64,000 nt of DNA, from contig NW_027362763.1 of the NCBI RefSeq assembly GCF_046119375.1, positions 236,716,001 to 236,780,000 of the forward strand, in the 5' to 3' direction. Under the pieces are notes generated by a model that saw only the letters and a list, made by a program, of their open reading frames with translations, did no database searches and had not been told where the DNA came from. Both the position numbers and the translations under genes were made by a program. This document shows, one piece after another, positions 899 to 32,204 of the stretch. The DNA is from Phyllobates terribilis. Lineage: Eukaryota. Position 1 is the stretch's first letter; each line of letters starts with the position of its first letter.

Positions 899-3058
899 CT
901 AGTCCCTGTACCTAGCAGGTAGGATACCTTTGGTACTCCGCTCAGATCGCCTCAAAGGTACTGTCCATTGACTGCAGATTAGTTCAGGTTCTATGGTTTC
1001 TTCAGGTGGAAGAAAAGTATTCTCTGTTGAGGTAGGAATGAACTGACAATAGCCAGGAAACGCAAATTGTGGAGCAAAGATAAGTTCAGCGAGGCTCGGC
1101 AGTCTTTCTGATGAATCTGGAGGATTCTGTGTTCTAATCAAAGTTGACTTGGGTAGTGGTGACTCTCTCAGCAGTTCTTCCTTGAGACACAGTTTTAGGC
1201 GGTTTCTGTGTACTGTCAGGGGTTTCCAACCAATTTGGGATATCTCGTACACATAAGATGATGAAAAGGGTATAGCTGTTTTTGTGTACGATTCAACTTC
1301 CCAAAGTGGATCCAATTTTAAAGGCCAATGGTTGTTTCAGAGCCAGACTCGGTCACCAATTTGTAGGGGTTTGACATGGGAATGTTGATCACAGTCTTCT
1401 TGTTGTCTTCTTTGTGCTTCTTACATGCGAGAATCAACAGTTTCCTTGGCTTTCGCCATGCGTCTGCAGTGTTCAATCACCCAGTCTGTTTGTAGAAAAA
1501 GATTAATGGTGTCAGGTACTTGTACACTTAGAGCCTAGTCTGAAGGCAACTGGCCTTGTTGGCAGAACATCAGATAAAATGGAGTATGATCAGTTGAGCA
1601 ATATATGGTGTTATTGTAGATGTGGACAAGATCTTTCAGAATGTCAGGCCACACAGTTTCTCTTGTTGCAGAAGGAGTGCACAGCATACTGATGATAACT
1701 TAGTTCACTCTTTCACAGAGGCCATTACCTTGTGGATGGTAAGCAGTGGTATGCAGTTTCTTGAAATCTCTGTACTTGCTCAGCTCGTGGAAAAGTTCAG
1801 ATTCAAAGGCAGGTCCACGACCAGTGAGGATGTGGTCTGGACACCCATAGTGTTGGATAAACTCGGTATAGAAGAATTCAGCTGCAGTTTTGGCTGCAAG
1901 ATCTATGACAGGAGCAATAGCGGCAAACTTTGTGTAATGGTCCACCATTGTGAGGGCATATATATAGCCAGAGTGAGTTGGGCACAATTTCACATGATCA
2001 AAGCAAAAATTTCTCCTGGTTTTTGTGACTTAATAGGGTGTAAGGGTGCTTTTTGATCTCTGCATCCATCTTTTGTGATGTTACATGCGGAACATTCTCG
2101 GCACCAACTTTCAATGTCTCCTCTCATACCGACTCAGTAGAACCTTTGGCAGATGGTAGCTTCAGTTTTCTGGACACCGAAATGGCCAGAGTGATCATGA
2201 AAGGCTTCAAGGATGACCCGTGAATGAGTATTTGGTGAAGTCTGTCACCTGAGATAGGGTCCAAAGCATTTCTCATTATGAGCCCTTTCTGGACAAATAG
2301 GCATTCTCTCTGTCTCCAGAGGCGGGTAAATTCCACATCAGGATGAGCTTGTCTTAACCTGGAACTCATTGGAACTCGTCCAGTAGTAGGGAAGTCATGG
2401 AGTTCCCCCAGGACTCTGCTCTCTTCTTGTAATTTCTTCCACAGGGAAGGTTCTTGAAGATGGCTTGGAATGAGATTCCCCCTTTTCAGCAGAGGCAGTG
2501 ATCGCACTCTGCTGGGGAAAGGAGTAGAAAGGAAGCATTTATACCTCTTCCCAGTCATCTCAGGGTGGTTCTTCTCCAACTGGCAGCAGGGACAACGCAC
2601 CGGCATTGACATTTGATTGCCACTGTGGTATTTGACTGTGAATTTGTAGTTCGCTAGGCTTGAAACCCACCATTGCTCCATGGCTCCCAGCGGGGAGGAA
2701 TCCAGTTGCGCTAGTGGGTTATTGCCTGTGTAGACAGTAAAGGGCATGGCAGCCAGGTAATCCTTGAATTTTTCTATAACAGCCCAGACAAGTGCAAGCA
2801 GTTCAAGCTTGAACGAACTGTAGTTGCTGTCATTCTTCTCAGTTCCTCTGAGGCTGCGACTGTTGTAAGCAATCACACGCTTTTTATTGTCCTGGACCTG
2901 GGACAAAACAGCACCTAACCCTTGGAGGCTAGCATCTGTATACAAAAGGAATGGCTGAGTGTAATAAGGATAGGCCAGGATAGGTGGCTGGGTAAGAAGG
3001 TTTTTCAGTGTTTGGAATGCTTGTTCTTGATGATTTGTTCAGTCTACTGGAAGCCTTC
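899..3058 (-). pseudogene. pol: Gypsy A pol 3' half (connection, RNase H, integrase), broken by stops and frameshifts
   Basis: Motifs PILAYP..QPFLLYTDASLQGLGAVLSQ and YSSFKLELLALVWAV..F.DYL (RNase H). Integrase core TMVDHYTKF...ILTGRGPAFES...TTAYHPQGNGLCERVN. Tail PLRRSERSTKG. Confidence 0.92.
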
Positions 3059-9843: not shown

Positions 9844-11771
9844 GTGGCATCAATTGCCCCACTGTTGCTTAAAACGGTTGGTGAGGTGATTTTACCAAAT
9901 CCCCAAGCTTTTAGTCTCCCAAGGATGACACAGGGGTAGAAATGTCCTTGCGAATCCATGATTTGATCATCTTTATGAACGTGAGTCTGTCTACATTGTC
10001 AGTGGACAGCCACGTGCGCTTATCTGTCAGCACACCACCAGCAGCGCTGAACACACGTTCAGAGAGAACGCTGGCTGCATGGCATGACAAGATCTCCAAG
10101 GCGTGAGTGGCGAGCTCCGGCGATTTTTCAAGATTGGAATACCAAAATGAGCAAGGGTCCAGTGACACAGTCATGGCTTCGATGTTCACTTGGAGATTCT
10201 CCTGTACCATCCTCTCTAGGCATTGACTATGTGTCAGACTTCTTGTCTCCTGTGGCCTTGCAAAGGATGGTCTAAAAAAGTGGTGAAACGATTCCACAAA
10301 ATTGCTGTTACCAGCAGATACTGTGTTACTGTTACTGTTTGAGTGATGAAGACTCGACAGTCCCACCGTTGGCAAGTTAGAATTCTGACAATCCGGGGGT
10401 CATGTTGCAGGTAGTGCAGCAAGAAGGCACTCATGTGTCTTGCGCATCCAGAAGGACCAAGTCCTTGTTTTGTTGGTAGCGAGGTAAGAATCATGCTTCC
10501 TTCCTCTGCCCTCTCCCTCCAACCTCGCACAACAGAAATGTGATCAAGGTCTCCCTCATCTGATGAGTCTTCCATGCCCATTGCCAGTTCGTCCTCCACT
10601 TATTCCTCGGCTCCTGCACCTTCCTCAACAGTTTGGCTGCTACCATGCGCCCTGGTTAATCCCTCTCCCCCACCCTCCCATGCCTGCCGCCTTGGTGCTG
10701 CCAACCGTCTGGACCTTGGAGATGTTATCCCTTCCGCATACGACTCCTCCTCTACTTCCTCCACCTCCTCTTGTCCCACCACCTGACTCCGAATTCTGTT
10801 TAACATGTGCTCCAGCATGTAAATCACCGTAATAGTCATGCTGATAATGGCATCGTCAGCACTAAACATCTTCGTCGCCATTTCAAGACTGTGCAGAAGG
10901 GTGCATAGGTCCCTGATCTGAGACCACTCCTCCAGCGTGATTTGCCCCACCTCTGGATCTCGTTGGCCCAGGCTATACATCAGAACGTATTGCACCAGGG
11001 CTTGTCGGTGCTGCCACAGTCGCTGCAACATGTGCAGAGTTGAATTCCACCGTGTCGGCACATCGCATTTCAGCCGGTGAACTGGCAGGCCCAACGACTT
11101 CTGTAGAGATGTAAGTCGTTGAACTGCGGGATGCGAACGGCGGAAGTGAGCACACAGCGACCGTGCACTCTGCAGAAGGCCATCTAGTCCGGGATAGTGG
11201 GCTAAAAATTGCTGGACAACCAGGTTCAACACGTGAGCCATACAAGGCACGTGTGTGACATTGCCCCGGCGAAGTGCCGCACCCAGGTTTGCAGCATTGT
11301 CGCACATGGCCTTCCCTGGTTGCAGGTCCAGTGGAGACAACCTTTCATGAAACTGGGTCTCCAGAGCTGACCAAAACTCCTCAGCTGTGTGACTCACATT
11401 TCCCAGACATTTCAAAGTAAACACTGATGCGTTGAGCCCTGCTGCCAGCATAGTAAGGAGGTGTGCAGGATTCCTTTGGCGCAGTTAGAAAGCAGGTGGC
11501 ATTACCAGACAGGCTTTGGGTGCAGGTGGAGGACCGAGAGGAGGTTGAGGAGGCAGAAGCAGTGGAGGAAGTTCGAGATAAAGAGGATTAACACACAACT
11601 CGTGGGGACGGTAAGACTTGGACAACAGCCCCTTGTCCTGCTGTCACCATAGTTACACAGTGCCCAGTCAGCGACATGTAACGCCCCTGTCCATGCCTTC
11701 TCGTCCAAGTGTCTGTGGTGAAGTGCACCCTGTCACACACAGAGTTTCTCAAAGAAGCGGTGATGTTGTGT

Positions 11772-12397
11772 TGTCACGGGTGTGTCGCCACGAAGATCGT
11801 CACGATTACACAGCCTGACTTCTCGCAGCTGACTTTTTGGTGCTTTGTGTTTTTCGGCAGTGAGGGAGTTAATTCTCTCTCTCTCTGTACTAGACGAGGT
11901 CCAGCCTCGCCCAGCTGCAATCAATGCTGCTGTAGTGAGACTCCTTCAAATGCCTGCTGGTCTGTTAGTGAAGTGTCGGTGAAAGCATTTCATGCAGACT
12001 AACAGAGCGGATCGTGGTATTTGGAGTTTCAGAGATAAGTGTATTTGGAGTGTTTTTTCCCTTCCTCGCTTTATCATTTATCTCCTTTCCTGTTGGTGTT
12101 CCCTCTGTTGTAGTTGTGTAGTTTTTGTATGCAAGGTGGTTTTGGTTTTTCCCTTGTACTGTCTCGTTCGTCTAAGTACTGCGTGTGGGCATATTATTAC
12201 TTGTCCCCTTTTGTTGTGATCGGGGTCCTTCTCAGGACTAGATTACTTAGGTGCAGGGATCCTCAGGAGGTAGGGGTTACGCTGGCGGCCTGGACCTCTG
12301 TACCTTTAACAGTACCTCCAGGTTGAGGGATTAGTCAGGGCCCCAGCTTAGGGTCAGCTTAGGCCCCCTACCTCCAGTATACAGAGACAGCGTGACA
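11772..12397 (+). repeat. 5' LTR of Gypsy B
   Basis: TGTCACGGG...CAGCGTGACA. Direct repeat of 16582-17207. Confidence 0.97.
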
Positions 12398-12408
12398 TTT
12401 TCACCGAC
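12398..12408 (+). promoter_or_regulatory. Non-tRNA primer binding site complementary to LTR 11975-11984 (putative self-priming)
   Basis: TTTCACCGAC (12399-12408) is the exact reverse complement of GTCGGTGAAA (11975-11984). There is no TGG tRNA-type PBS after the LTR. Confidence 0.8.
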
Positions 12409-12431
12409 CACTTAGTTTTTCTCCAGCTACC

Positions 12432-13271
12432 ATGGATCCAGTAGCCGGTCTAGCTCGGCAGTTGCAGAGTTTGTCCATGGAGCTGGCGGACGTTAGGTCC
12501 AAGGTTTTGTATCCTCAGGAGCAAGCCGGACCAGAACCTAAAGTAGCTCTCCCTGACAGGTTCACTGGGGGGCGGGACAAGTTTTTTGTTTTCCGGGAGG
12601 CATGCAAGTTGTACTTTCGGCTGCGGCCTCGGTCATCGGGGATTGAAGAACAAAGGGTGGGAATTGTCATCTCGCTCCTACAAGGGGACCCACAATCTTG
12701 GGCGTTCTCTCTTCCCCCGGGCTCCCCGGCTCTCCAGTCAGTGGATAGGTTTTTCGCTGCTCTGGGACTCGTATATGATGACCCAGATCGGATCTCCCTT
12801 GCTGAGTCTAAGTTACGTAGGATCCAGCAGGGAGATCGTCCGGCGGAGGAATTCTGTTCGGAGTTCCGTAGGTGGGCCACGGACACCCAGTGGAATGACC
12901 CGGCTCTTAGGAGCCAGTTTTGTCAAGGTTTATCTGACAAATTACAGGATGTGTTGGCACAGTATGACTCTCCAGCGTCACTGGAAGCCGCTATGGCCCT
13001 TGCTATTCGCGTTGACAGACGGCTTCGGGAGAGGTGCGGGATAACTCTACCCCCTGTGATGACTCCACCTCCTACAAGGTCCCCTCATATGGTGGTTCCC
13101 CTGGTCAGTCCAGAGGAGCCTATGCAATTAGGAGGGACATCATTTCGGGGGAGGGGACCGGTGGTGCGCCATAAGACAGGAAGGTGTTTCTTCTGCGGGA
13201 GAAAGGGACATTTTATTGGGGGGTGTCCATCCCGTCCCTTGCAGAGTGAAGAGTCGTCGGAAAACTGTTGA
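12432..13271 (+). CDS. gag: Gag of Gypsy B (capsid plus CCHC zinc knuckle)
   Basis: 279-aa ORF with PEPKVALPDRFTG, QGDRPAEEFCSEFRRWA and the knuckle CFFCGRKGHFIGGC. Confidence 0.95.
   Translation: MDPVAGLARQLQSLSMELADVRSKVLYPQEQAGPEPKVALPDRFTGGRDKFFVFREACKLYFRLRPRSSGIEEQRVGIVISLLQGDPQSWAFSLPPGSPALQSVDRFFAALGLVYDDPDRISLAESKLRRIQQGDRPAEEFCSEFRRWATDTQWNDPALRSQFCQGLSDKLQDVLAQYDSPASLEAAMALAIRVDRRLRERCGITLPPVMTPPPTRSPHMVVPLVSPEEPMQLGGTSFRGRGPVVRHKTGRCFFCGRKGHFIGGCPSRPLQSEESSENC
13259..13265 (+). promoter_or_regulatory. Putative -1 ribosomal frameshift site
   Basis: G GAA AAC lies in gag phase just before the gag stop. Pol is in the -1 frame, and that frame is open from 13250. Confidence 0.65.
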
Positions 13272-16200
13272 TCCCAGGTTGTGTGGTGGACGGCAATCTG
13301 GGAGTAGGTATTTCGTCCCTAGGTTCGTCTCAGTTTCTCGTACCGGCGGAGGTGGTGGTGGGTACGAGAACTGAGAGGATATCTGTTCTTCTGGATAGTG
13401 GGGCCAGGGCTAATCTGGTTGATGCTCGGTTTGCCCGGGTTCAAGGTATGCGATTGAGTGAGTTGGCTAAACCCATCCCCATATTCTCGATCGATGCCAG
13501 GCCTCTCAGTCAGGGAAGTTTTTTGCAAGCTGTGCATGACGTAAAACTTCAAGTGGGGGCGATACATAAAGAACTGTTGTCTTGCTACGTGTTGGAGGGT
13601 CTTCCCACTCCTATAGTGTTGGGCCTTCCTTGGTTAACTAAGCATAACCCGGTTATTAATTGGCAAACCAGAGAGATAAGCCAATGGAGTAAATTCTGTA
13701 ATAAAAACTGCATGAACACGGTCATCGGTGCGGTTACTCCTTGGGTCTTACCTCCATTTCTGGCGGACTTTGAGGATGTATTCTCGGAAAAAGGGTGCCA
13801 GGAACTACCTCCTCATCACGAGTATGACTGTTCTGTAAAACTGCTCCCTGAGGCCAAGTTACCTAAAGCTAGGTTGTATAACCTTTCTGGTCCTGAGAGG
13901 CAGGCCATGAAGGATTATATTTCAGAAAGTCTGGCTAAGGGGCATATTAGACCTTCATCTTCACCGGTGGCTGCGGGGTTCTTCTTTGTTAAGAAGAAAG
14001 ATGGAGGCCTACGCCCTTGCCTGGATTTCCGTGAACTTAATCGGATTACAGTCCGAGATCCGTATCCGCTCCCACTTATTCCCGATCTCTTTAATCAGAT
14101 CGTGGGCGCCAAATGGTTCTCTAAGTTGGATCTCAGGGGGGCGTACAATCTGATTAGGATGAAGGAGGGGGATGAGTGGAAGACGGCGTTTAACACTCCG
14201 GAGGGGCATTATGAGAACCTTGTCATGCCATTCGGTCTGACTAATGCCCCGGCGGTGTTCCAACACTTTGTTAATGACATTTTTCGCCGCCTGGTTGGAC
14301 AGTTTGTTGTCATATATCTGGATGATATCTTAATTTACTCGTCGGATCTGGTGTCTCATCAGGAGCACGTTAGGCAGGTGTTACAGATCTTGCGGGATAA
14401 TAAACTGTATGCCAAATGGGAAAAGTGTGTGTTCGCCGTACAGGAACTCCAGTTTTTAGGCTTCCTGGTTTCAGCGTCCGGTTTTCGTATGGACCCTGGG
14501 AAAGTGCGGGCAGTTCTTGAGTGGGATCGGCCTGAGAATCTTAAGGCACTACAACGTTTCCTGGGATTTGCTAATTATTACTGGAAGTTCATTCGTAATT
14601 TCTCGTCCATGGTTAAGCCTCTCACAGACATGACTAAAAAGGGGACGGATTTTTCTAGGTGGTCTGACAAGGCTTGTCAAGCATTCTCCTCCTTGAAAAA
14701 ATGTTTTGCCTCGGCACCCATATTCATTCAACCTGATGCGTCACAGCCATTCATTGTAGAGGTAGATGCTTCCGAGGTAGGGGTGGGAGCAGTATTGTCA
14801 CAAGGTTCGTCCCCTGGTAAGTGGCATCCGTGCGCCTTTTTCTCTAAAAAATTGTCGTCCGCTGAGAGGAATTACGATGTCGGCAATAGGGAACTCTTGG
14901 CCATTAAGTTAGCTTTTGAGGAGTGGCGCCATTTTTTGGAGGGGGCAGCCCATCCGGTCACCGTCATCACCGATCACAAGAACCTGCTATATCTGGAGTC
15001 CGCGAAACGTCTGAATCCCAGACAAGCTAGGTGGTCATTGTTTTTTACCAGGTTTAATTTTGTCGTTACATATCGTCCTGGGTCAAAAAATGTAAAGGCG
15101 GATGCCTTATCTCGTAGTTTCCCTGGGGCCGGGAATACGGACAACCCGATTCCTATCCTTCAGGAGGGGGTGGTGGTTTCGGCAGTATGCTCTGAGCTGG
15201 AGGAGGAGGTATTGGAGGCTCAGGGGGACGCCACTGTTGGACCTCCGGGGAGACTGTTTGTTCCAGATCAGTTGCGACAAAAGGTGATCGAGGCACACCA
15301 TAACTCAGTTTTTGCAGGACACCCGGGGAGTAGAGCAACTGTGGATCTCCTCTCGCGTCGGTTTTGGTGGCCTAACTTACATAAGGAGGTGGTAACTTTT
15401 GTCGCGTCCTGTGGGGTTTGTGCGCGCTCTAAGACCTCACATACCCGTCCGTCTGGGGCCCTCTTACCTTTGAAGATCCCGGAGCGTCCTTGGACTCATC
15501 TGTCTATGGACTTTATTACGGACCTCCCTCCGTCTTCGGGTAAAACGGTCATACTCGTTGTAGTGGACAGGTTCAGCAAGATGGCACATTTTATCGCTCT
15601 TCCGGCTCTCCCTAATGCTAAAACTCTTGCGCAGGTGTTCATTGGGGAGATTGTGAGGCTTCACGGGGTACCCTCCGAGGTGGTGTCTGATCGGGGGTCT
15701 CAGTTTGTGTCCAAGTTCTGGAAGGCGTTTTGTGCACGGCGGGGGATGCATTTGTCATTCTCATCGGCTTTTCATCCTCAGACCAATGGTCAGACGGAAC
15801 GTATGAACCAGAGCTTGGAGACATATCTCCGGTGTTTTGTGTCAGAGAACCAGGAGGACTGCGCTTCTTTCTTACCTCTGGCAGAGTTTGCTCTTAATAA
15901 TAGGCGGAGCGAGTCCACTGGTAAGTCCCCGTTTTTTGGGGCATATGGTTTTCACCCCCAGTTTTGTACTTTCAGTAGGGGGGGCTCTTCGGGGGTTCCT
16001 GAGGAGGAACGATTTTCCTCATCACTCGCTTCAGTATGGAGAGGGGTGCTGAAGAATCTGAATACTATGGGGAACCGATACAAACGTATGGCTGATAGGA
16101 GGAGAGTGTCTGGTCCGGACCTAAGTGTGAACGATCGGGTATGGTTGTCTACCAGGAATATAAAACTTAAGGTTCCCTCCTGGAAACTGGGTCCCAGGTT

Positions 16201-16642
16201 CATCGGGCCGTACAGAATCAGTTCTATTATTAATCCGGTGGCATTCCGTCTTGACCTCCCCCCTACGTTTAAAATTCACAACGTGTTCCACAGATCGTTG
16301 CTTAAGAGGTATGTGGCGCCGGTGGTACCGTCACCTTTACCTCCCCCTCCAGTGGTGGTCAAGGGTAACTTGGAGTTCCAGGTATCGAGGGTCATCGATT
16401 CACGCTTTAATCGCCGGTCCCTTCAGTACCTGGTTCATTGGAAAGGGTATGGTCCTGAGGAGAGGATGTGGGTTCCTGCGTCGGATATTAACGCAGACCG
16501 ATTAGTTCGGGCCTTCCACACAACTCACCCGGATAAACCTGGCCCTGAGGGTTCGGAGGCCCCTCGTAGAAGGGGGGGTACTGTCACGGGTGTGTCGCCA
16601 CGAAGATCGTCACGATTACACAGCCTGACTTCTCGCAGCTGA
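13268..16642 (+). CDS. pol: Pol of Gypsy B: protease, RT, RNase H, integrase, chromodomain
   Basis: Uninterrupted 1124-aa ORF. Motifs LLDSGA (PR), YLDDILIYS (RT), VEVDASEVGVGAVL (RH), HHCC plus SMDF...VSDRG...QTERMN (IN), GPY, and a C-terminal chromodomain (QYLVHWKGYGPEERMWVP). Confidence 0.97.
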   Translation: MIPGCVVDGNLGVGISSLGSSQFLVPAEVVVGTRTERISVLLDSGARANLVDARFARVQGMRLSELAKPIPIFSIDARPLSQGSFLQAVHDVKLQVGAIHKELLSCYVLEGLPTPIVLGLPWLTKHNPVINWQTREISQWSKFCNKNCMNTVIGAVTPWVLPPFLADFEDVFSEKGCQELPPHHEYDCSVKLLPEAKLPKARLYNLSGPERQAMKDYISESLAKGHIRPSSSPVAAGFFFVKKKDGGLRPCLDFRELNRITVRDPYPLPLIPDLFNQIVGAKWFSKLDLRGAYNLIRMKEGDEWKTAFNTPEGHYENLVMPFGLTNAPAVFQHFVNDIFRRLVGQFVVIYLDDILIYSSDLVSHQEHVRQVLQILRDNKLYAKWEKCVFAVQELQFLGFLVSASGFRMDPGKVRAVLEWDRPENLKALQRFLGFANYYWKFIRNFSSMVKPLTDMTKKGTDFSRWSDKACQAFSSLKKCFASAPIFIQPDASQPFIVEVDASEVGVGAVLSQGSSPGKWHPCAFFSKKLSSAERNYDVGNRELLAIKLAFEEWRHFLEGAAHPVTVITDHKNLLYLESAKRLNPRQARWSLFFTRFNFVVTYRPGSKNVKADALSRSFPGAGNTDNPIPILQEGVVVSAVCSELEEEVLEAQGDATVGPPGRLFVPDQLRQKVIEAHHNSVFAGHPGSRATVDLLSRRFWWPNLHKEVVTFVASCGVCARSKTSHTRPSGALLPLKIPERPWTHLSMDFITDLPPSSGKTVILVVVDRFSKMAHFIALPALPNAKTLAQVFIGEIVRLHGVPSEVVSDRGSQFVSKFWKAFCARRGMHLSFSSAFHPQTNGQTERMNQSLETYLRCFVSENQEDCASFLPLAEFALNNRRSESTGKSPFFGAYGFHPQFCTFSRGGSSGVPEEERFSSSLASVWRGVLKNLNTMGNRYKRMADRRRVSGPDLSVNDRVWLSTRNIKLKVPSWKLGPRFIGPYRISSIINPVAFRLDLPPTFKIHNVFHRSLLKRYVAPVVPSPLPPPPVVVKGNLEFQVSRVIDSRFNRRSLQYLVHWKGYGPEERMWVPASDINADRLVRAFHTTHPDKPGPEGSEAPRRRGGTVTGVSPRRSSRLHSLTSRS

Positions 16643-17207
16643 CTTTTTGGTGCTTTGTGTTTTTCGGCAGTGAGGGAGTTAATTCTCTCTCTCTCTGTGC
16701 TAGACGAGGTCCAGCCTCGCCCAGCTGCAATCAATGCTGCTGTAGTGAGACTCCTTCAAATGCCTGCTGGTCTGTTAGGGAAGTGTCGGTGAAAGCATTT
16801 CATGCAGACTAACAGAGCAGATCGTGGTATTTGGAGTTTCAGAGATAAGTGTATTTGGAGTGTTTTTTCCCTTTCTCGCTTTATCATTTATCTCCTTTCC
16901 CGTTGGTGTTCCCTCTGTTGTAGTTGTGTAGTTTTTGTATGCAAGGTGGTTTTGGTTTTTCCCTTGTACTGTCTCGTTCGTCTAAGTACTGTGTGTGGGC
17001 ATATTATTACTTGTCCCCTTTTGTTGTGATCGGGGTCCTTCTCAGGACTAGATTACTTAGGTGCAGGGATCCTCAGGAGGTAGGGGTTACGCTGGCGGCC
17101 TGGACCTCTGTACCTTTAACAGTACCTCCAGGTTGAGGGATTAGTCAGGGCCCCAGCTTAGGGTCAGCTTAGGCCCCCTACCTCCAGTATACAGAGACAG
17201 CGTGACA
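16582..17207 (+). repeat. 3' LTR of Gypsy B, preceded by PPT AGAAGGGGGGGTAC (16568-16581)
   Basis: Direct repeat of 11772-12397. Confidence 0.97.
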
Positions 17208-18083
17208 TGTGTGCGACATGCTAGTGGAGCGCAGGCACACCTTTCTTTGAGAAGTAGTGCCGACTGGGCATCTAGTACTGGGGCACTGTGACGGACATAA
17301 AGTCTTGAAAATCCTCTGTGTCCTCCAGGTGGAAAGGCAGCATTTCTGTAGCCAACAGCTTGCAGATGGTGAAATTCAACCTCTTAGCTTTCTCATGGTT
17401 AGGAGGAAATGGTCTTTTACTTTTCCACATCTGAGGGACCGAGGGCTGGCTGTTGTGCTTAGACGGTGTTGAGTAGGGTGTCCCCGGCAACTGCCGGTCT
17501 GTGAGGAAGATGCAGGCGGACATGTTAGGTTGCCTTGATCCAAAGGTGGTGCTCTCGATGTCGGAGAGCGCTCAACACTAGCAGGTGTTTCCACTTCCCA
17601 ATGAACTGACGACCTGCCAATCACACTGGCTGTTGCGGGTAAAGAGGTGGCAGGTCTGCGTCCAAAAACATGTGTGACTGCTGTCCCCCCAGTCACAGAG
17701 GATGAAGAGGCTGCGGATGCACAAGATAGGGCAGACGGTGGTTGGCCCAGCCGGCCAGGCCGCATTGTAGCACAGTGAGCTTCCCACTGCAACTTATGCT
17801 TCATATCCATGTGACGGTACATGCATGAAGTACTCAAACTATGTATTTTTTGGCCTCTACTTAGCTTTTGCTGACAAATATTACAGATAACACGAGTTGG
17901 GTCATCCTTATCGATCTGAATAAATGCCCAGGCTATGCAAGGCTTAGAGCCCATGTGACCTGAAGAGCCACTACGACTTGTGGTCAGAGGCAGAGTTGTG
18001 GTTGAGGATGCAGTTGTTGGCGTGCTTCCAGTACTCCGTCTCTGTTCAGGAAGGCGCAACCTAACCTTGTCGTCAATAGCATC

Positions 18084-19228
18084 TGTGATGCCCCGCTGTG
18101 CTTGGTATCACAGATCCTACAAGAGTGCATTGATGGAATCCTCCACAAGAGGCACCCATAAACATTCACACATCTCCACCTTCCACCTCAGACCAGCAGA
18201 GGGAGCCCGTTAGGGATATAAATAGGGAAGGTGGAGCTAGGCAGTTCAGTTCCTCTGAAGAGTTCCTGCAGTAGAGAAGCCTAAGAGAGGTCAGTCTGCA
18301 GTGGAGCTCAGTCTAGTCTAGAGAACGCAGTTAATAGTTCAGCAGTGGAGCACGAGGCTCCTGCTTGCTAGATTCAGGGAGCCCAGATAGAGCTTAAGGT
18401 GTGCCGGTGCTGTAAGATCAGTGAAGCGCGGCAAGCTGCCGTTAGTGTGTATAGCCTAGTGAGGGCCCGAGTAGGCCGAAGGCGAGTGGCGAGTTAGTAC
18501 ATAAGGGGCAGAGGAGCTTAACCAGCTCACCCCGAAGCATTTACCGGACACAGGATCCGAGCTTACCGGTATCTCTATGACCCAGTAAGTCATAACCGGA
18601 ATCCCTGGAGAACTACAAGTCCCAGGATCGCTAAGGTGCTGATATGTAACAGAGCCAGGAGACGCTTAGGCCCCGCATACTGGGAGCGTGAACTCCAAGA
18701 GAAGGCCCTACCACAAGGTCAGCCAGCGCAGGACAGAGACAAAGTTAGGCCTAGCTCCAGGCAGGTCAGAAACTTACTACGCAGAGGCAAGAAACAGGAG
18801 GCCCTACATCCGCTCATTGGGGAGGATCCTGATATGCACCCTTCACCCTACAGTGCTCCGGGATGTGCCTGAATTTCCACCAGTAAAAGGTACTGAAGTG
18901 ACTACCGTGTCCATTCCCGTTCTTGCTCTGACCCAGCTGGGTCTCGCCTGTCCTGCATTCCCCCTGCATACGCTGCCCTGAGACCTAGCTCCACCTGTGG
19001 GGAGCTATACCATCGAGCTGCCTTATCACCGGCCTCAGTGGACTGCTGCAGCGCTGGTGCTTGTCACCAGATACCACAGGTGGCGTCATGAACTCTTATA
19101 AAATTAACAATTATCCACCCTTTTAAAGAGAGACCCCAGGGTACGGTCCTGGGAGCCGACCACCGCGACATCCCCAAGGCCAGGCAAATGCCCGGGTACC
19201 GAGTCATCCCCATCCCCAGGGCTAGTCA
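18084..19228 (+). mobile_element. Solo LTR (Gypsy-type) inserted in the hAT transposase
   Basis: TGTGATGCCCC...GGGCTAGTCA with 4-bp TSD CATC. Removing it restores the transposase frame (VEKD-AIDDKVRLRLPE). Confidence 0.85.
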
Positions 19229-23088: not shown

Positions 23089-24956
23089 TTAGCTGCTCAT
23101 GAGTAGACAGAACAAGGGGTCTGAATTAACCTTCTTACTGTCTTGGGCAGCTTGGGTAGAATGTTGTTTAGCTGTTACTTCACTTGAGATTATATCTTCT
23201 GGTGAGAGTTGAGACAACTGCGCTACTGGATGAAATATGTGAAGGTTAACAGGTGCCTCACTTAAATTAATCAGGCAAACTGGCACTCTTCCGTTGGAGA
23301 CAGTTACAATGCTGCGAGCAGCTTTCACTAATGGTTGTCCTTCTAGCAGGATTGGTTTGAGGAGAGCCTGATAATCTTGATTTTCAATACCTGGTCGGGC
23401 ACGGCACCATACCATGGTTTCTGAACTAGGCTGTAGGTCGGGTGTCTCGGATGCAGACACGACAAATTTCACCCTTGCTATTTGCAAACTTTTGCTGGGC
23501 GACAAGCACACGGATGACATGCTGAATGGTCTGCTGATCAGAAGATGTAGCTGTAGGGAGAGAGGCATGCAAGGCAGACAACACTTCTGGAAAACAATTT
23601 CTAAGAAAATTCATGCCTAGAACAATTACAGCAAAACCCTCATCCGATAGATCAGTTACAATGACACCCTGTTTTTGGAGCTTAATGTCCCCAATCCGAA
23701 TAGTGGGCTCCCAGTAACCCCGGTGAGGTATGGGTTGACCATTACCAGCTATAATGTTCATCCCGACATCTGGAGGGTTATTTAAGTCACTAAAGTGCCA
23801 ATGTTCAAGATATGCCCGCTTTTGCAAAGTAGTTACCTGTGAGCCGGTGTCGACGAGATCATCCAGAGGGACACCGTTTACCAGGACAGTTATGTGTGGG
23901 CAGGGCGAGATGAAGCGAGGCACCCACATGGATGCTCCATTTGGACCTTTTCTTCTTCCTCCCAAGGGGGGATCCTCAGCCTCGGGGGTGGCCCGTTTAA
24001 CTGATACCACTGGGCCTCGGTGTGTCCATATCGGTGGCAGTGCTGACAGAAAGGTCTATTATGGCGAGCAGCTTTGCCTGGAGGTAGACTTTTTGGTGGA
24101 GGCTCAGGAGAGAGAGTTCTGTCCTGGGCTTGCTCCATGGAGCGCATAGGTGAATTAATCAGATTTTTGATCTCCTGAGAGACTTGTTCGAGTCCTCTAG
24201 CAATGTAATCTACACGGGCCTCAAGTGATGGCTTGGAGTCCACAGCAGAAGTTTGCACAGCTTGTGTAGCTTGCATGGTACCTGGCGATGTCATCTGGAA
24301 AGATGGAGGGGCAGCAGGAATAGACCCAGCTAGAGGAGTAAAGGGGACATAGTTTCCCTGTACATATTCATTGCCAAGGACATGGATTGCTATGGTCTTG
24401 AAGTCTGCAAAGGTGAAGCTGGGATGTTGTGCAGCGAGCATGTAGAGTTGGCTCTGTGACAGTTCAGAGCGAGTCCCCTCTATGAAGCGGTCCAACAAGA
24501 TTTTGTCACACTTTTACGAGGGTCAACCTATAGAACAGCGGAGAAAGCCTCTTGGAGGGATAGAGAATAGTTCCGTAGGGTCTCACCTGGCTGTTGTCGT
24601 CTTTCAAAGAATCTCATCTTGACCTCAGAGATGGATGTAACCTCAAAGGCATCCTTCAGTTTCGCAAGGATTTGCTCAGACGTTTTCTTCTCTGTTGTGG
24701 GCCAGGATCGAACTTCCCTGGAAGCAGCACCCTCAAGCTGACCCAGCAGGATCTGCACTTGCTGTTCTCGAGAGAGGGGGTAAAACAGAAAGAGAGCAAG
24801 CAACTTGTCACAGAAGTCCCTGAATGTGTGCGGCTCCCCCTTGTAGCGTGGAAACCATAGTGTCCCAGGATAAAATGGGACAGGTAACGGCATGTTGCAC
24901 GCGATGGGCACACCAGGGCTGTTGGCACCAGCTTTGCAGTTGATGGGTTCAGTCAT
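23089..24956 (-). pseudogene. gag: Gypsy A gag, protease and post-protease spacer (frameshifted)
   Basis: Gag 24528-24956 and 23890-24498 (RRQQPGETLRNY; decayed knuckle CQHCHRYGHTEAQW). Protease VNGVPLDDLVDTGSQVT (23426-24010). Confidence 0.9.
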
Positions 24957-27546: not shown

Positions 27547-30336
27547 CTAGATCATCTCAGACAGATGTCTGTCCAGCCTCTGTTTGAAGACGTCCATTGA
27601 AGGGGAACTCACCACCTCTCGTGGCAGCCTGTTCCACTCATTAATCACCCTAACTGTCAAAAAGTTTTTTCTAATATCTAATCTGTGTCTCCTCCCATTT
27701 AGTTTCATCCCATTGCTTCTAGTCTTTCCTTGTGCAAATGAGAATAAAGATGATCCTTCTACAATGTGACAGCCCTTGACATATTTGTAGACAGCTATTA
27801 AGTCTCCTCTCAGTCTTCTTTTTTGCAAGCTAAACATTCCCAAATCCTGCAACCGTTCCTCATAGGACATGGTTTGCAGACCAGTCACCATTCTGGTCGC
27901 TCTTCTCTGAACTTGCTCCAGTTTGTCTATGTCTTTTTTAAAATGTGGTGCCCAAAACTGTACACAGTATTCCAGATGAGGTCTGACCAAAGAGGAGTAA
28001 AGACCGATAATGACTTCACGTGATCTAGACTGTATGCTTCTGTTAATACATCCCAGAATTGTATTTGCCTATTTTGCTGCTGCATCACACTGTTGACTCA
28101 TGTTCAGTCTATGATCTATTAGTATACCTAAGTCTTTTTCACATGTACTGTTGCTTAGCTCTATTCCTCCCATTCTGTATATGCTTTTTTCATTTTTATT
28201 GCCCAGATGTAGTACTTTGCATTTTTCCCTGTTAAAAAACATTCTGTTGGTTGTTGCCCACTGCTCCAGTTTATTTAGGTCTTTTTGAATCCTCTCTCTC
28301 TCTTCTCTAGTATTAGCTATCCCTCCTAGCTTTGTGTAATCAGCAAATTTAATCAGTTTACCCTCAATTCCTTCATCTAAATCATTGATAAAGATGTTGA
28401 ACAATACAGGTCCCAGGACGGAGCCCTGTGGTACCCCACTTGAGACATTCATCCAGCTGGATGTGAAGCCATTTACAACCACCCTTTGAGTCCGATCACT
28501 AAGCCAGTTATGAATCCACCTAACAGTTGCCTGGTCCATTGCATACTTGGTCATTTTTTCAATAAGGATGGTGTGAGATACTTTGTCAAATGCTTTGCTG
28601 AAGTCAAGATATACTATATCTACAGCATTTCCCTGATCCACCCAGTCAGTGATTCTGTCATAGAAGGAAATTAAGTTAGTCTGACATGACTTGTTAGTTA
28701 CAAACCCATGCTGACTCTGGTTAATCACTTCATTCTTATCCATGTACTTACATACATGTTGTTTAATAATTTGTTCAAAGATCTTTCCTGGTATAGAAGT
28801 CAGACTCACCGGACTATAGTTCCCTGGGTCCACCTTCTTCCCCTTTTTGAAGATAGGAACAACATTTGCTCTTCTCCAGTCTTCTGGGACTTCTCCTGTT
28901 CTCCAAGAAGTTTCAAAGATTATGGAGAGTGGTTCTAAAATTTCTTCTACGATCTCCTTCAGTACTCTGGGGTGTAATTCATCTGGACCTGGAGACTTGA
29001 GCTCATTTATGTTAGCTAAATATTCCCTCACAATCTTTCTGTTTACAGATAACTTGGATTCCTCTATTCCTTTAAAAGGACAGTGAAGATCAGTTGATGT
29101 TACATTTTCTTTCTGAGAGAAAACAGATGCAAAATAGGAATTAAAAAGTTCGGCCTTCTCAACATCCTCTCTTACCATTTCTCCATTTTCATCCTGTAAA
29201 AATCCTATAGCATCTTTGACTTTTCTTTTACTTTTGACATACCCCCAAAATCCTTTTTTATTGCTTTTGACATCTCTTGCAAGCCTTAATTCATTGTCAG
29301 CTTTAGCTAACCTGATACGTGCCCTACAGGATCTGCAGACTGCATTATAATCTTCTTTAGATATGCCTCCCTCTTTCCATTTAATAAACATTTCTTTCTT
29401 TCTTTTTAGCATGTGTTTAAGTTCTGTGTTCATCCATCCTGGTTTCCTTAAATGCTTCCCATTCTTCCTACTTTTCGGGATTGTTAACGATTGTGCTTTG
29501 AGAATCTCATTTTTAAAAATTTCCCGTCCTTCCTGGACATTTTTGTCCTTAAGGACATCCAGCCATTGGATCCCTCCTATTCTCTTTCTGAGTCTCTTAA
29601 AATCTGCCTTTCTAAAATCTAACCTTGAAGTTTGAGTCTTCACATGTCTTCCTCCTCTAGTTATCCAAAATTCTATAATAGCATGATCGCTGCCTCCTAG
29701 GGTCCCAGCCACCTTTACCTCCTCAACCATTTCCTCCCTGTTTATAAGGATTAGATCCAAAGTAGCAGATCCCCTTGTTTTCTCCCCTACCTTTTGGAAG
29801 ATAAAGTTGTCAGCAAGAGAGGATAAGAATTTGCTTGACCTGTTAGTTTTACTTGAGAGAGATTCCCAACAAATGTCTGGATAGTTGAAATCTCCCATGA
29901 CCACTACGTCATATTTTTTGGAGAACTTGGTCATTTGATACATAAAGAGTTCATCCATATCTTCAGCTTGCCCAGGTGGCCTGTAGTAAATGCCTACAAT
30001 GGTGTCCTTTCCGTTGTTCTCTCCTTGTATTCTTACCCAAACAGTTTCCACAGAACTCCCAGTCTCTGAAGCTTCAATCTCTGTGCAGATATACGCTTTT
30101 CTAACATACAATGCAACACCTCCTCCTCGTTTATCAAGTGTGTTTCTTGCAAATAAGTTGTATCCTTTTAGCCTTTTATTCCAATCATGTGTATCGTCCC
30201 ACCAAGTTTCAGTGATTCCAATGACATCATATTCCTTTTTCTGCATTAGTAGTTCCAATTCTCCTTGTTTGTTGCCCATGCTTTGTGCATTTGTATAAAA
30301 ACATTTTAGTTTGTGATTGGTTTCTCTTCCTCCCAT
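27547..30336 (-). pseudogene. CR1 ORF2 (APE endonuclease plus RT) with one premature stop and a mutated RT motif
   Basis: Motifs YTNAQS..NK..EL, GITETWW, MGDFNYPDI.W, GVPQGSVLGP. FADYTKL replaces the usual FADDTKL. TAG at 28069-28071 is followed by an in-frame continuation (27547-27990). Confidence 0.95.
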
Positions 30337-30458
30337 ATTTTTATTATTTAGATTTTTTTGTCTTTGTTCTTCTTTTCCACTTCCAGTAGCAGAGATCTCA
30401 ATAGTATTTGTCAGCTGTATGGCTTTTTCTGGCCTTTTGCTTCCCTTCCCACATTGTT

Positions 30459-31421
30459 CTAGTTTAAAGCTCTTCTGATGAGTGTAGCAAGGCGACTTCC
30501 AAATACATGTTTTCTCGTCTTCGTAAGGTGCACCCCATCTCTAGCAAGTAGTCCATCGTATAGGTAATTCATTCCGTGATCCAGAAATCCAAATCCTTGT
30601 TGACGGCACCATCGACGTAGCCAGTTGTTCACCTGTAGAATCTTATTCCACCTCATTGTTCCATGGCCATCCACTGGGAGGATGGATGAGAAGACCACCT
30701 GCGCTCCCAATTCTTTCACTTTCTTGCCTAAGTCTTCAAAGTCACTGCAGATGGTTTCCAGGTCCTTTCCTGCGGTGTCATTTGTCCCCACATGTATTAG
30801 CAGGAATGGGTAGTGATCTGTAGGTCTGAAGAGTCTTGATATCCTGTCAGACACATCTTTAATTTTTGCTCCTGGAAGACAGCACATTTCTCTTGAGGTT
30901 ATGTCTGGTCTGCAGATAGCGGCCTCTGTTCCTCTTAACAGGGAATCCCCCATGACCACCACTCTCCGTTTTTTCTTCACAACATTCTTCTTTCTCCATC
31001 CAGGAGGATTCTGAGGGCTTACAAGGTTATTCATTGCTGGCAAAGTCTTATTTTGCTGTATTTCTTCATGGTTCTCCTGCATGAGAGCCTGGTACTGGTT
31101 CCTGAGCAGTATGGGTGCTGACTGCCTCTCGATCCTCCTGCTTCTGTGGGTCACATGCTTCCATTCCTCTGTTTCGTCAGGTGCAGTTCGAATTTCTTCT
31201 CTTTCTGAATCATGAAGAGATAATTCTGCTCTGTCTAAGAACTCTTCACCTTCCTTAATGATTTTCAAGGTAGTTAACCTCTCTTCTAGATTTCGCAACT
31301 TTTCCTCCAACAGGGACACAAGCTTGCATTTCTGGCATGTGAAGTTTGGCTTTTCCACTGGCAAGTCTGTGAACATGTAGCAGGATATGCAGCTCACCAA
31401 ATGGCTCCTGGACTCTTCCAT
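30459..31421 (-). CDS. CR1 ORF1: zinc finger, coiled coil and SGNH esterase
   Basis: 320-aa open ORF with CISC...CQKC, VVMGDSLLRG, IHVGTND and DGVHL. Confidence 0.9.
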   Translation of the reverse strand: MEESRSHLVSCISCYMFTDLPVEKPNFTCQKCKLVSLLEEKLRNLEERLTTLKIIKEGEEFLDRAELSLHDSEREEIRTAPDETEEWKHVTHRSRRIERQSAPILLRNQYQALMQENHEEIQQNKTLPAMNNLVSPQNPPGWRKKNVVKKKRRVVVMGDSLLRGTEAAICRPDITSREMCCLPGAKIKDVSDRISRLFRPTDHYPFLLIHVGTNDTAGKDLETICSDFEDLGKKVKELGAQVVFSSILPVDGHGTMRWNKILQVNNWLRRWCRQQGFGFLDHGMNYLYDGLLARDGVHLTKTRKHVFGSRLATLIRRALN

Positions 31422-32204
31422 GTTCTTATTGTTAATGTTCTGAAAACAGTGAAAAAAGCTTAAAAAAAAACTTCAAAATGCGCAGTTTACCGATGTCCTC
31501 TTTTCAGCTCCAACAGCCAAAATCCAGTGTTCTTTGAGCTCGCGGAGACTCTTCACTTACCCCAAAATGCAGTGGGAATATGCAAATTATCTCCTCAGGA
31601 CTCCTCCCCTGGTTTTATAGGGGGAGGGAAGCAAAAGAGAGTATACAGACATTACAGCATGGGATCGCAAATTATTTTTTCTTTGAGGTAAAACATTGTT
31701 TAAAAACAGGCAGGGAAATGTTTTGCCTCGCAAAAACAATGTTTTAACTCACAGAAAGAATCATCTGTGATCCCATGCTGTCCTGTCTGTATACTCTTTT
31801 GCCTCCTCCTCTGCCCAGGAGCTGTGGTATGATCAGACCACGTTCCTATATGATCAGACACAGCCATTACACAGTACACAGCAGGGACACATTTCTAAGA
31901 TTATCTCAGCACAGGAACATTTTATTTAAACACATCCAATTGAGGAAGTTATTATTATTCCAAGAACTGTTGATTAAAATGAACTCTTTGTAATGGGACA
32001 ACCCCTTTAACTAATGTTGGCTCATTAGGTGTAACAGTTTTACAAAAAACACACAGATAAATAAAAAAAACAATTTTGAACCGTAAAGGTTCACTAATAA
32101 GTGCTCATCAAACATACATTATAAAACTAGTCGATTTTGAGGTTTCGAAGAGAGAATTATACAGATTTTAGCTGGTAAAATAACTGCTGATCTGTCATCT
32201 GTAG

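Follow-up and report, generated by a model that had tools for sequence, protein, structure and literature searches.

A young chromodomain Gypsy element of the frog Phyllobates terribilis with a primer-binding site that pairs with its own LTR: a candidate for self-primed reverse transcription

Self-priming of reverse transcription has been proven for the retrotransposons Tf1 and Tf2 of Schizosaccharomyces pombe and predicted for Tj1, Tosmo1-3 and Tcry1 (PMC7175516, PMC4600332, PMC10085805). In Tf1, the transcript's first 11 bases are described as pairing with the primer-binding site, RNase H cutting between bases 11 and 12 (PMC7175516); about half of the Tf1 cDNA is reported to end in a retained primer-site copy (PMC11042837). 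Self-priming is presented as a trait that members of the Tf1/sushi group, vertebrates included, have in common, with reference to Butler et al. 2001 (PMC10085805, PMC6317226, PMC4600332). The preliminary description of the DNA studied here stated that such priming had been proposed for the vertebrate Tf1/sushi group, and these papers already contain that proposal. No experimental test of self-priming in a vertebrate element was found in the literature covered, from which subscription papers were mostly absent. In frogs, the Amn-san chromoviruses are described as the most abundant LTR elements (PMC4131045). Silencing by tRNA fragments is described as acting on tRNA-primed elements (PMC7472051).

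The window, that is, the whole stretch of DNA that was analysed, is 64,000 nucleotides long (contig NW_027362763.1, positions 236,716,001 to 236,780,000, forward strand). It contains a complete LTR element spanning 11772-17207, in which the two LTRs differ by six substitutions over 626 bp. The main parts of the element are as follows.

11767..11771, plus strand: left target-site duplication (TSD) TGTGT, 5 bp, perfect
11772..12397, plus strand: 5' LTR, 626 bp, with TG...CA ends
12432..13271, plus strand: gag, 279 aa, with Retrotrans_gag domain and CCHC knuckle
13250..16642, plus strand: pol, 1130 aa from stop to stop, with protease motif, reverse transcriptase (RT), RNase H, integrase, Tf2-type SH3 domain and chromodomain
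13259..13302, plus strand: predicted -1 frameshift signal, with slippery heptamer (13259-13265) and hairpin (13273-13302), from reading frames and fold
16568..16578, plus strand: polypurine tract (PPT), ending 3 nt short of the 3' LTR
16582..17207, plus strand: 3' LTR, 626 bp, with TG...CA ends and, at 16785-16794, the primer segment once more
17208..17212, plus strand: right TSD TGTGT, 5 bp, perfect

Public contigs join 11766 directly to 17208 in four of four runs, which confirms the boundaries of the element; this joint is not proof of an empty allele, because the flank is itself a repeat. The features of a Ty3/Gypsy chromovirus are present, including the protease–RT–RNase H–integrase order, a C-terminal chromodomain, LTRs with TG...CA ends, a PPT and a TSD. 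The open gag and pol, the chromodomain, the near-identical LTRs and the perfect TSD given in the preliminary description were all found in the element. The DNA around it is a decayed DNA transposon (window 10237-11771 and 17208-18107, minus strand) with a BED zinc finger on one side; motifs on the other side, which have no Pfam match, are presumably those of a hAT-like transposase. The window also contains, on the minus strand, a LINE at 28069-31472 that encodes an endonuclease-RT and an ORF1 with a GDSL-esterase-like domain scoring below the curated cut-off, an arrangement known from CR1-type LINEs. Fragments of other LTR elements lie at 2124-3038 (RNase H) and 23426-24513 (aspartyl protease), also on the minus strand.

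The pol gene sits in the -1 frame relative to gag, and gag–pol expression by -1 frameshifting is predicted from the frames, the heptamer and the hairpin. A Gag with a CCHC knuckle and the production of Gag-Pol mostly by -1 frameshifting are features of the Tf1/sushi group outside fission yeast; the knuckle is present here, and the frameshift is predicted. The arrangement of gag and pol varies among relatives. In a subfamily of the window's family (L189, L190, L192 and L076; RT 98-99% identical), gag–pol forms one frame of 1418 aa; the junction, corresponding to window 13259-13271, has a run of A at the slippery site and retains the hairpin. Frames of 1405-1418 aa occur in 26 of 45 top matches, and gag–pol is one frame in families F8 (1499 aa) and F9 (1509 aa) too. 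Stop-codon readthrough, first suggested by an in-frame TGA, was dropped; the element concerned (L181) has one open frame of 1499 aa with its stop at the far end.

The window's family is large and young. All 150 scored matches to the window's gag in the 10.6-Gb genome are 99-100% identical. A search pattern joining PPT and LTR, dominated by this family, had 7,740 matches, compared with 19 for its control, and a broader version of the pattern had 19,569 compared with 16. Among the named relatives of Pol, most are frog proteins (about 50-64% identical), together with fish proteins (about 50%); the best match overall is 72% identical. The best relatives with solved structures are PEG10 for Gag (E 1e-12) and Ty3 for Pol. 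In a FastTree phylogeny of 26 genome loci and those members of the protein set P0001-P0060 that align over at least 230 aa, the window element branches within the frog and fish proteins and away from plant/algal-like and distant Gypsy sequences. The sequence features of the Tf1/sushi group that could be tested are found in the window element, the named members having been compared by description, and its earlier placement with this group is supported by the chromodomain with the Tf2-type SH3 domain, the PEG10 match and the frog and fish relatives.

The top matches for the Retrotrans_gag and SH3_Tf2-1 domains lie on small contigs (C2755-C8306), and the Pfam gag search for further families returned small contigs with plant-like elements only. 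Three small contigs that were fetched (L048-L050) contain repeats longer than 2 kb and RTs outside the vertebrate clade. The contigs C2755-C8306 are possibly plant DNA contaminating the assembly.

The features on which the priming argument rests are as follows.

11945..11951, plus strand: TATA-like box TTCAAAT, beginning exactly 30 nt before 11975
11975..11984, plus strand: predicted first 10 nt of the transcript, the candidate self-primer, with the start site deduced from the sequence
12398, plus strand: 1-nt spacer (T) between the LTR end and the primer site, 1-2 nt in relatives
12399..12408, plus strand: primer-binding site TTTCACCGAC, complementary to 11975-11984 and not of the tRNA type

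The ten bases TTTCACCGAC at 12399-12408 are the exact reverse complement of LTR positions 11975-11984, as had been pointed out in the preliminary description. A match of at least 10 nt was obtained in 17 of 20,000 dinucleotide shuffles of the LTR (start offsets 0-3; p about 0.001). An 11th pair, G.U, is possible between 11985 and 12398. When 11975-12440 is folded, all ten pairs of the helix are formed with probabilities of 0.87-1.0. The distance from the primer start to the LTR end is 423 nt in the window element and 286-1616 nt in its relatives. Among 45 copies of the window's family, four are mismatched, two through changes confined to the 5' LTR and two through changes confined to the site.

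For comparison among families, 10-kb stretches were taken around Pfam, pattern and protein matches, and LTR pairs were located by script. LTR finders were run on 121 such stretches, and the 57 elements with a perfect 5-bp TSD were counted; stretches with no LTR pair, with broken ends or without a TSD were left out. The bases after the LTR pair over 9-11 nt with at least one of the element's own LTRs in 52 of these 57. The five with fewer than 9 nt comprise one copy in which the primer-site region is missing, one with a CpG change and three older copies. Since TSD-bearing copies are not independent, 11 family or subfamily representatives were chosen from the 10.6-Gb genome; their RTs are 56-76% identical to that of the window element where measured, and they amount to about six independent sequence types. 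All 11 have an own-LTR helix of 9-11 nt, with 11 different primer-site sequences, whereas cross-family pairings of at least 9 nt number 3 of 110, and two of these three involve F5 with its sister family F6. Covariation of the LTR segment and the site across related families, which the preliminary description put forward as a check, is thus observed.

Nine of the ten helix columns vary among the representatives, the fixed one being the first G-C pair, and 109 of 110 helix cells are Watson-Crick, a count that is partly a result of construction, as the helix defines the alignment. The close relatives F3, F5 and F6 are one or two compensated pairs apart, and two F4 subfamilies have an A/T pair swapped on both strands. 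The sister family F7 differs from the window element at up to three compensated positions, its representatives having been found with a designed pattern and picked because they matched. In 20 copies of this old family, exact matches number 5; differences at CpG-type positions are seen in 8, and 7 gave no match. In one further element (L032), the primer site does not match its own LTR segment. One pattern search was near background, with 489 matches compared with 279 for the control, mostly without usable elements. As sequence evidence, the comparative support for self-priming is unusually clean.

Abundant elements that lack an RT (L091, L092, L093 and L101) were also observed; they have LTRs of 1.7-1.9 kb and about 2 kb of internal sequence. 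They keep a matching primer and site of their own, one or two compensatory pairs away from those of the autonomous family F3.

The usual geometry of a core promoter comprises an A/T-rich box about 30 nt upstream of the start and a pyrimidine-G step. At the locus, the TATA-like TTCAAAT, which had been placed about 25-30 nt upstream of 11975, is present and begins at -30. Positions -30 to -24 from the first paired base are A/T in 69 of 77 cells across the 11 representatives, whereas random placement, drawn 100,000 times, averages 38.5 and never exceeds 56; this test of position is independent of the pairing. In all 11 representatives, a pyrimidine at -1 precedes G at +1. Within 80 nt, ten of them have their best TATA-like match beginning at -30 to -32, which in the window element is tied with one at -56; F9, with its best match elsewhere, is the exception. 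The box of the window element is weak (5 of 7), stronger variants occur in 14 of 45 copies, and in the sister family F7a the match to TATA is perfect, at -31. From this geometry, the transcription start is predicted at G11975. One contig links 11884 to 11974; as a lone record of low depth, it was set aside.

The predicted start also bears on the origin of the primer. The LTR segment could act as the primer but be released from its second copy, in the 3' repeat, or from a distinct LTR transcript instead of from the capped 5' end; this is improbable. The same ten bases do lie at 16785-16794, and a poly(A) signal was looked for without success: 10 of 11 representative LTRs lack AATAAA downstream of the primer, so that the R region required for strand transfer was not located. 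The sushi LTR models trained on zebrafish are described as having AATAAA near the 3' end (PMC3601003). However, in all 11 families the first pair of the helix falls precisely on the predicted +1, which would not be needed for an internal piece, and such a primer would require two cuts, not one.

A primer of host origin was considered against the same families. TGG is absent from the first 8 nt after the LTR, both in the window element, where the lack of a TGG-type site after the 5' LTR had been remarked on before, and in all 11 representatives; an unrelated Gypsy element (L128, RT about 39% identical) does have TGG after its LTR. Large arrays of tRNA-Lys(TTT) genes were found in the genome, at C1:816.9-817.9 Mb (with a spacing of about 1.05 kb) and C11:574.0-575.8 Mb. 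For the primer sites, the best matches to 35 variants of the tRNA-Lys(TTT) genes, the only isotype compared, are 4-6 nt long, compared with 9-11 nt for the own LTR. A scan of 11700-13400 with Rfam returned no relevant match. It is very unlikely that a tRNA half, an internal tRNA fragment or another small host RNA serves as the primer while the LTR match merely shields or regulates the site, even though priming by half-tRNAs is described for other LTR lineages (PMC6317226) and the tRNA comparison covered the single isotype. Besides the missing TGG, the short tRNA matches and the Rfam result, the 11 different sites each follow their own LTR, in a way that is impossible for a conserved host RNA. 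That the helix is due to chance, or is a long-range structural pairing used in packaging or translation control apart from priming, is very unlikely too: long-range leader pairings do serve other roles in retroelements, and priming here is deduced from sequence, but the shuffle p of about 0.001 in one element is accompanied by recurrence of the helix in every family, one strand is always placed 1-2 nt off the LTR end, the point at which DNA synthesis has to start, and the element has no primer site besides this one.

The favoured reading, with a probability of roughly 0.88, is that this young chromodomain Gypsy element, the primer site of which pairs with its own LTR, uses about the first ten bases of its transcript to prime reverse transcription, in the manner of Tf1. 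Self-priming instead of the use of a tRNA was the central proposal of the preliminary description, and it is supported by the covariation with the own LTR and by the A/T box about 30 nt upstream. Transcription would begin at G11975, and the capped 5' end of the RNA would fold back over a 414-nt loop onto 12399-12408. By analogy with Tf1, the element's RNase H would then cut after base 10 or 11, freeing a 3'-OH, from which RT would extend the primer across the 1-nt spacer into U5. Plus-strand synthesis would finally copy the primer back into the primer site. The primer may come from the same RNA or from a co-packaged one. Copying of the primer into the site would explain the ready joint drift of the two; that primer changes can be so copied is inferred from the terminal primer-site copy retained in about half of the Tf1 cDNA.

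Sequences next to the helix may form further duplexes, the strands of which are as follows.

12009..12041, plus strand: LTR strand of a candidate arm of the 'pretzel' type, pairing with the 31 nt after the primer site at -27 to -29 kcal/mol
12409..12439, plus strand: leader with the start codon of gag, the other strand of the candidate arm, from the fold

A four-base extension of the pairing (AAGT/ACTT) had been proposed with its end at 12412; the correct end is 12413. These four pairs appear in a fold begun at 11971. They lie upstream of the predicted start, their bulge is variable (of 45 copies, 23 have 1 nt and 22 have 2-3 nt) and they compete with the downstream arm; the extension was rejected as part of the primer. 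It is likely incidental, because the bulge varies among copies and contigs from three runs, coded as other organisms, have A at position 12413. Alternatively, the ACTT bases can pair with 12037-12040, inside the long duplex 12009-12041/12409-12439 over the gag start codon.

This duplex resembles one arm of the three-duplex 'pretzel' described for Tf1 (PMC10085805). In the window's family, the downstream arm has a shuffle p of 0.007, and its predicted energy lies between -24 and -35 kcal/mol in all 45 copies. Across the 11 representatives, the downstream arm is above shuffles in two and the U5 arm in none, in tests that are crude for short helices. For adjacent helices, the mean lengths within families do not exceed those between families (6.2 vs 6.2 and 5.8 vs 6.3), and the downstream strand of the window element pairs better with the LTR of another family (-36.6) than with its own (-29.4). 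Arms of the Tf1 'pretzel' type are plausible in the window element, while their general occurrence across families is not supported. Either the arms are so short and variable as to be past the sensitivity of the tests, or vertebrate elements depend on them less.

A more far-reaching interpretation, which is tentative and rather unlikely, is that self-priming in vertebrate elements of the sushi type takes a reduced form, with a capped primer of 9-11 nt, a loop of 0.3-1.6 kb and a spacer of 1-2 nt but without the conserved arms of Tf1. The priming key of each family could then drift freely, because the primer templates its own binding site. Such elements would have no dependence on host tRNA and no exposure to silencing by tRNA fragments, which may have helped the families studied here to reach tens of thousands of copies in the 10.6-Gb frog genome.

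Self-priming in this element is expected for its group, the mechanism has already been predicted in print, and the copy in the window is one of thousands; the surprise to a specialist is low. The value of the system lies in its testability, with many young families, different primer sequences and a start predicted to the base, and further in its possible differences from Tf1. Like Tf1 and Tf2, the window element is a chromodomain Gypsy with a primer site that can pair with the RNA 5' end, here a predicted end, and with a primer of about 11 nt cut by RNase H, which here is likewise predicted. Its helix, however, has 10 bp (9-11 in relatives) and lies 1-2 nt from the LTR, whereas the Tf1 site appears to abut the LTR, as far as is described in PMC11042837; the two flanking duplexes that are required in Tf1 were not recovered across families here. 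In contrast to Tf1 and Tf2, the window element encodes a Gag with a CCHC knuckle and has gag and pol in separate frames. The Tcn1 chromoviruses of moss and the TAR copia elements, as described in PMC6317226, resemble the present case in that self-priming is predicted from sequence alone; they differ in having plant hosts, and TAR belongs to the copia lineage. Compared by description, the vertebrate elements of the Tf1/sushi group share with the window element the domain order, the chromodomain, the predicted -1 frameshift and the predicted self-priming.
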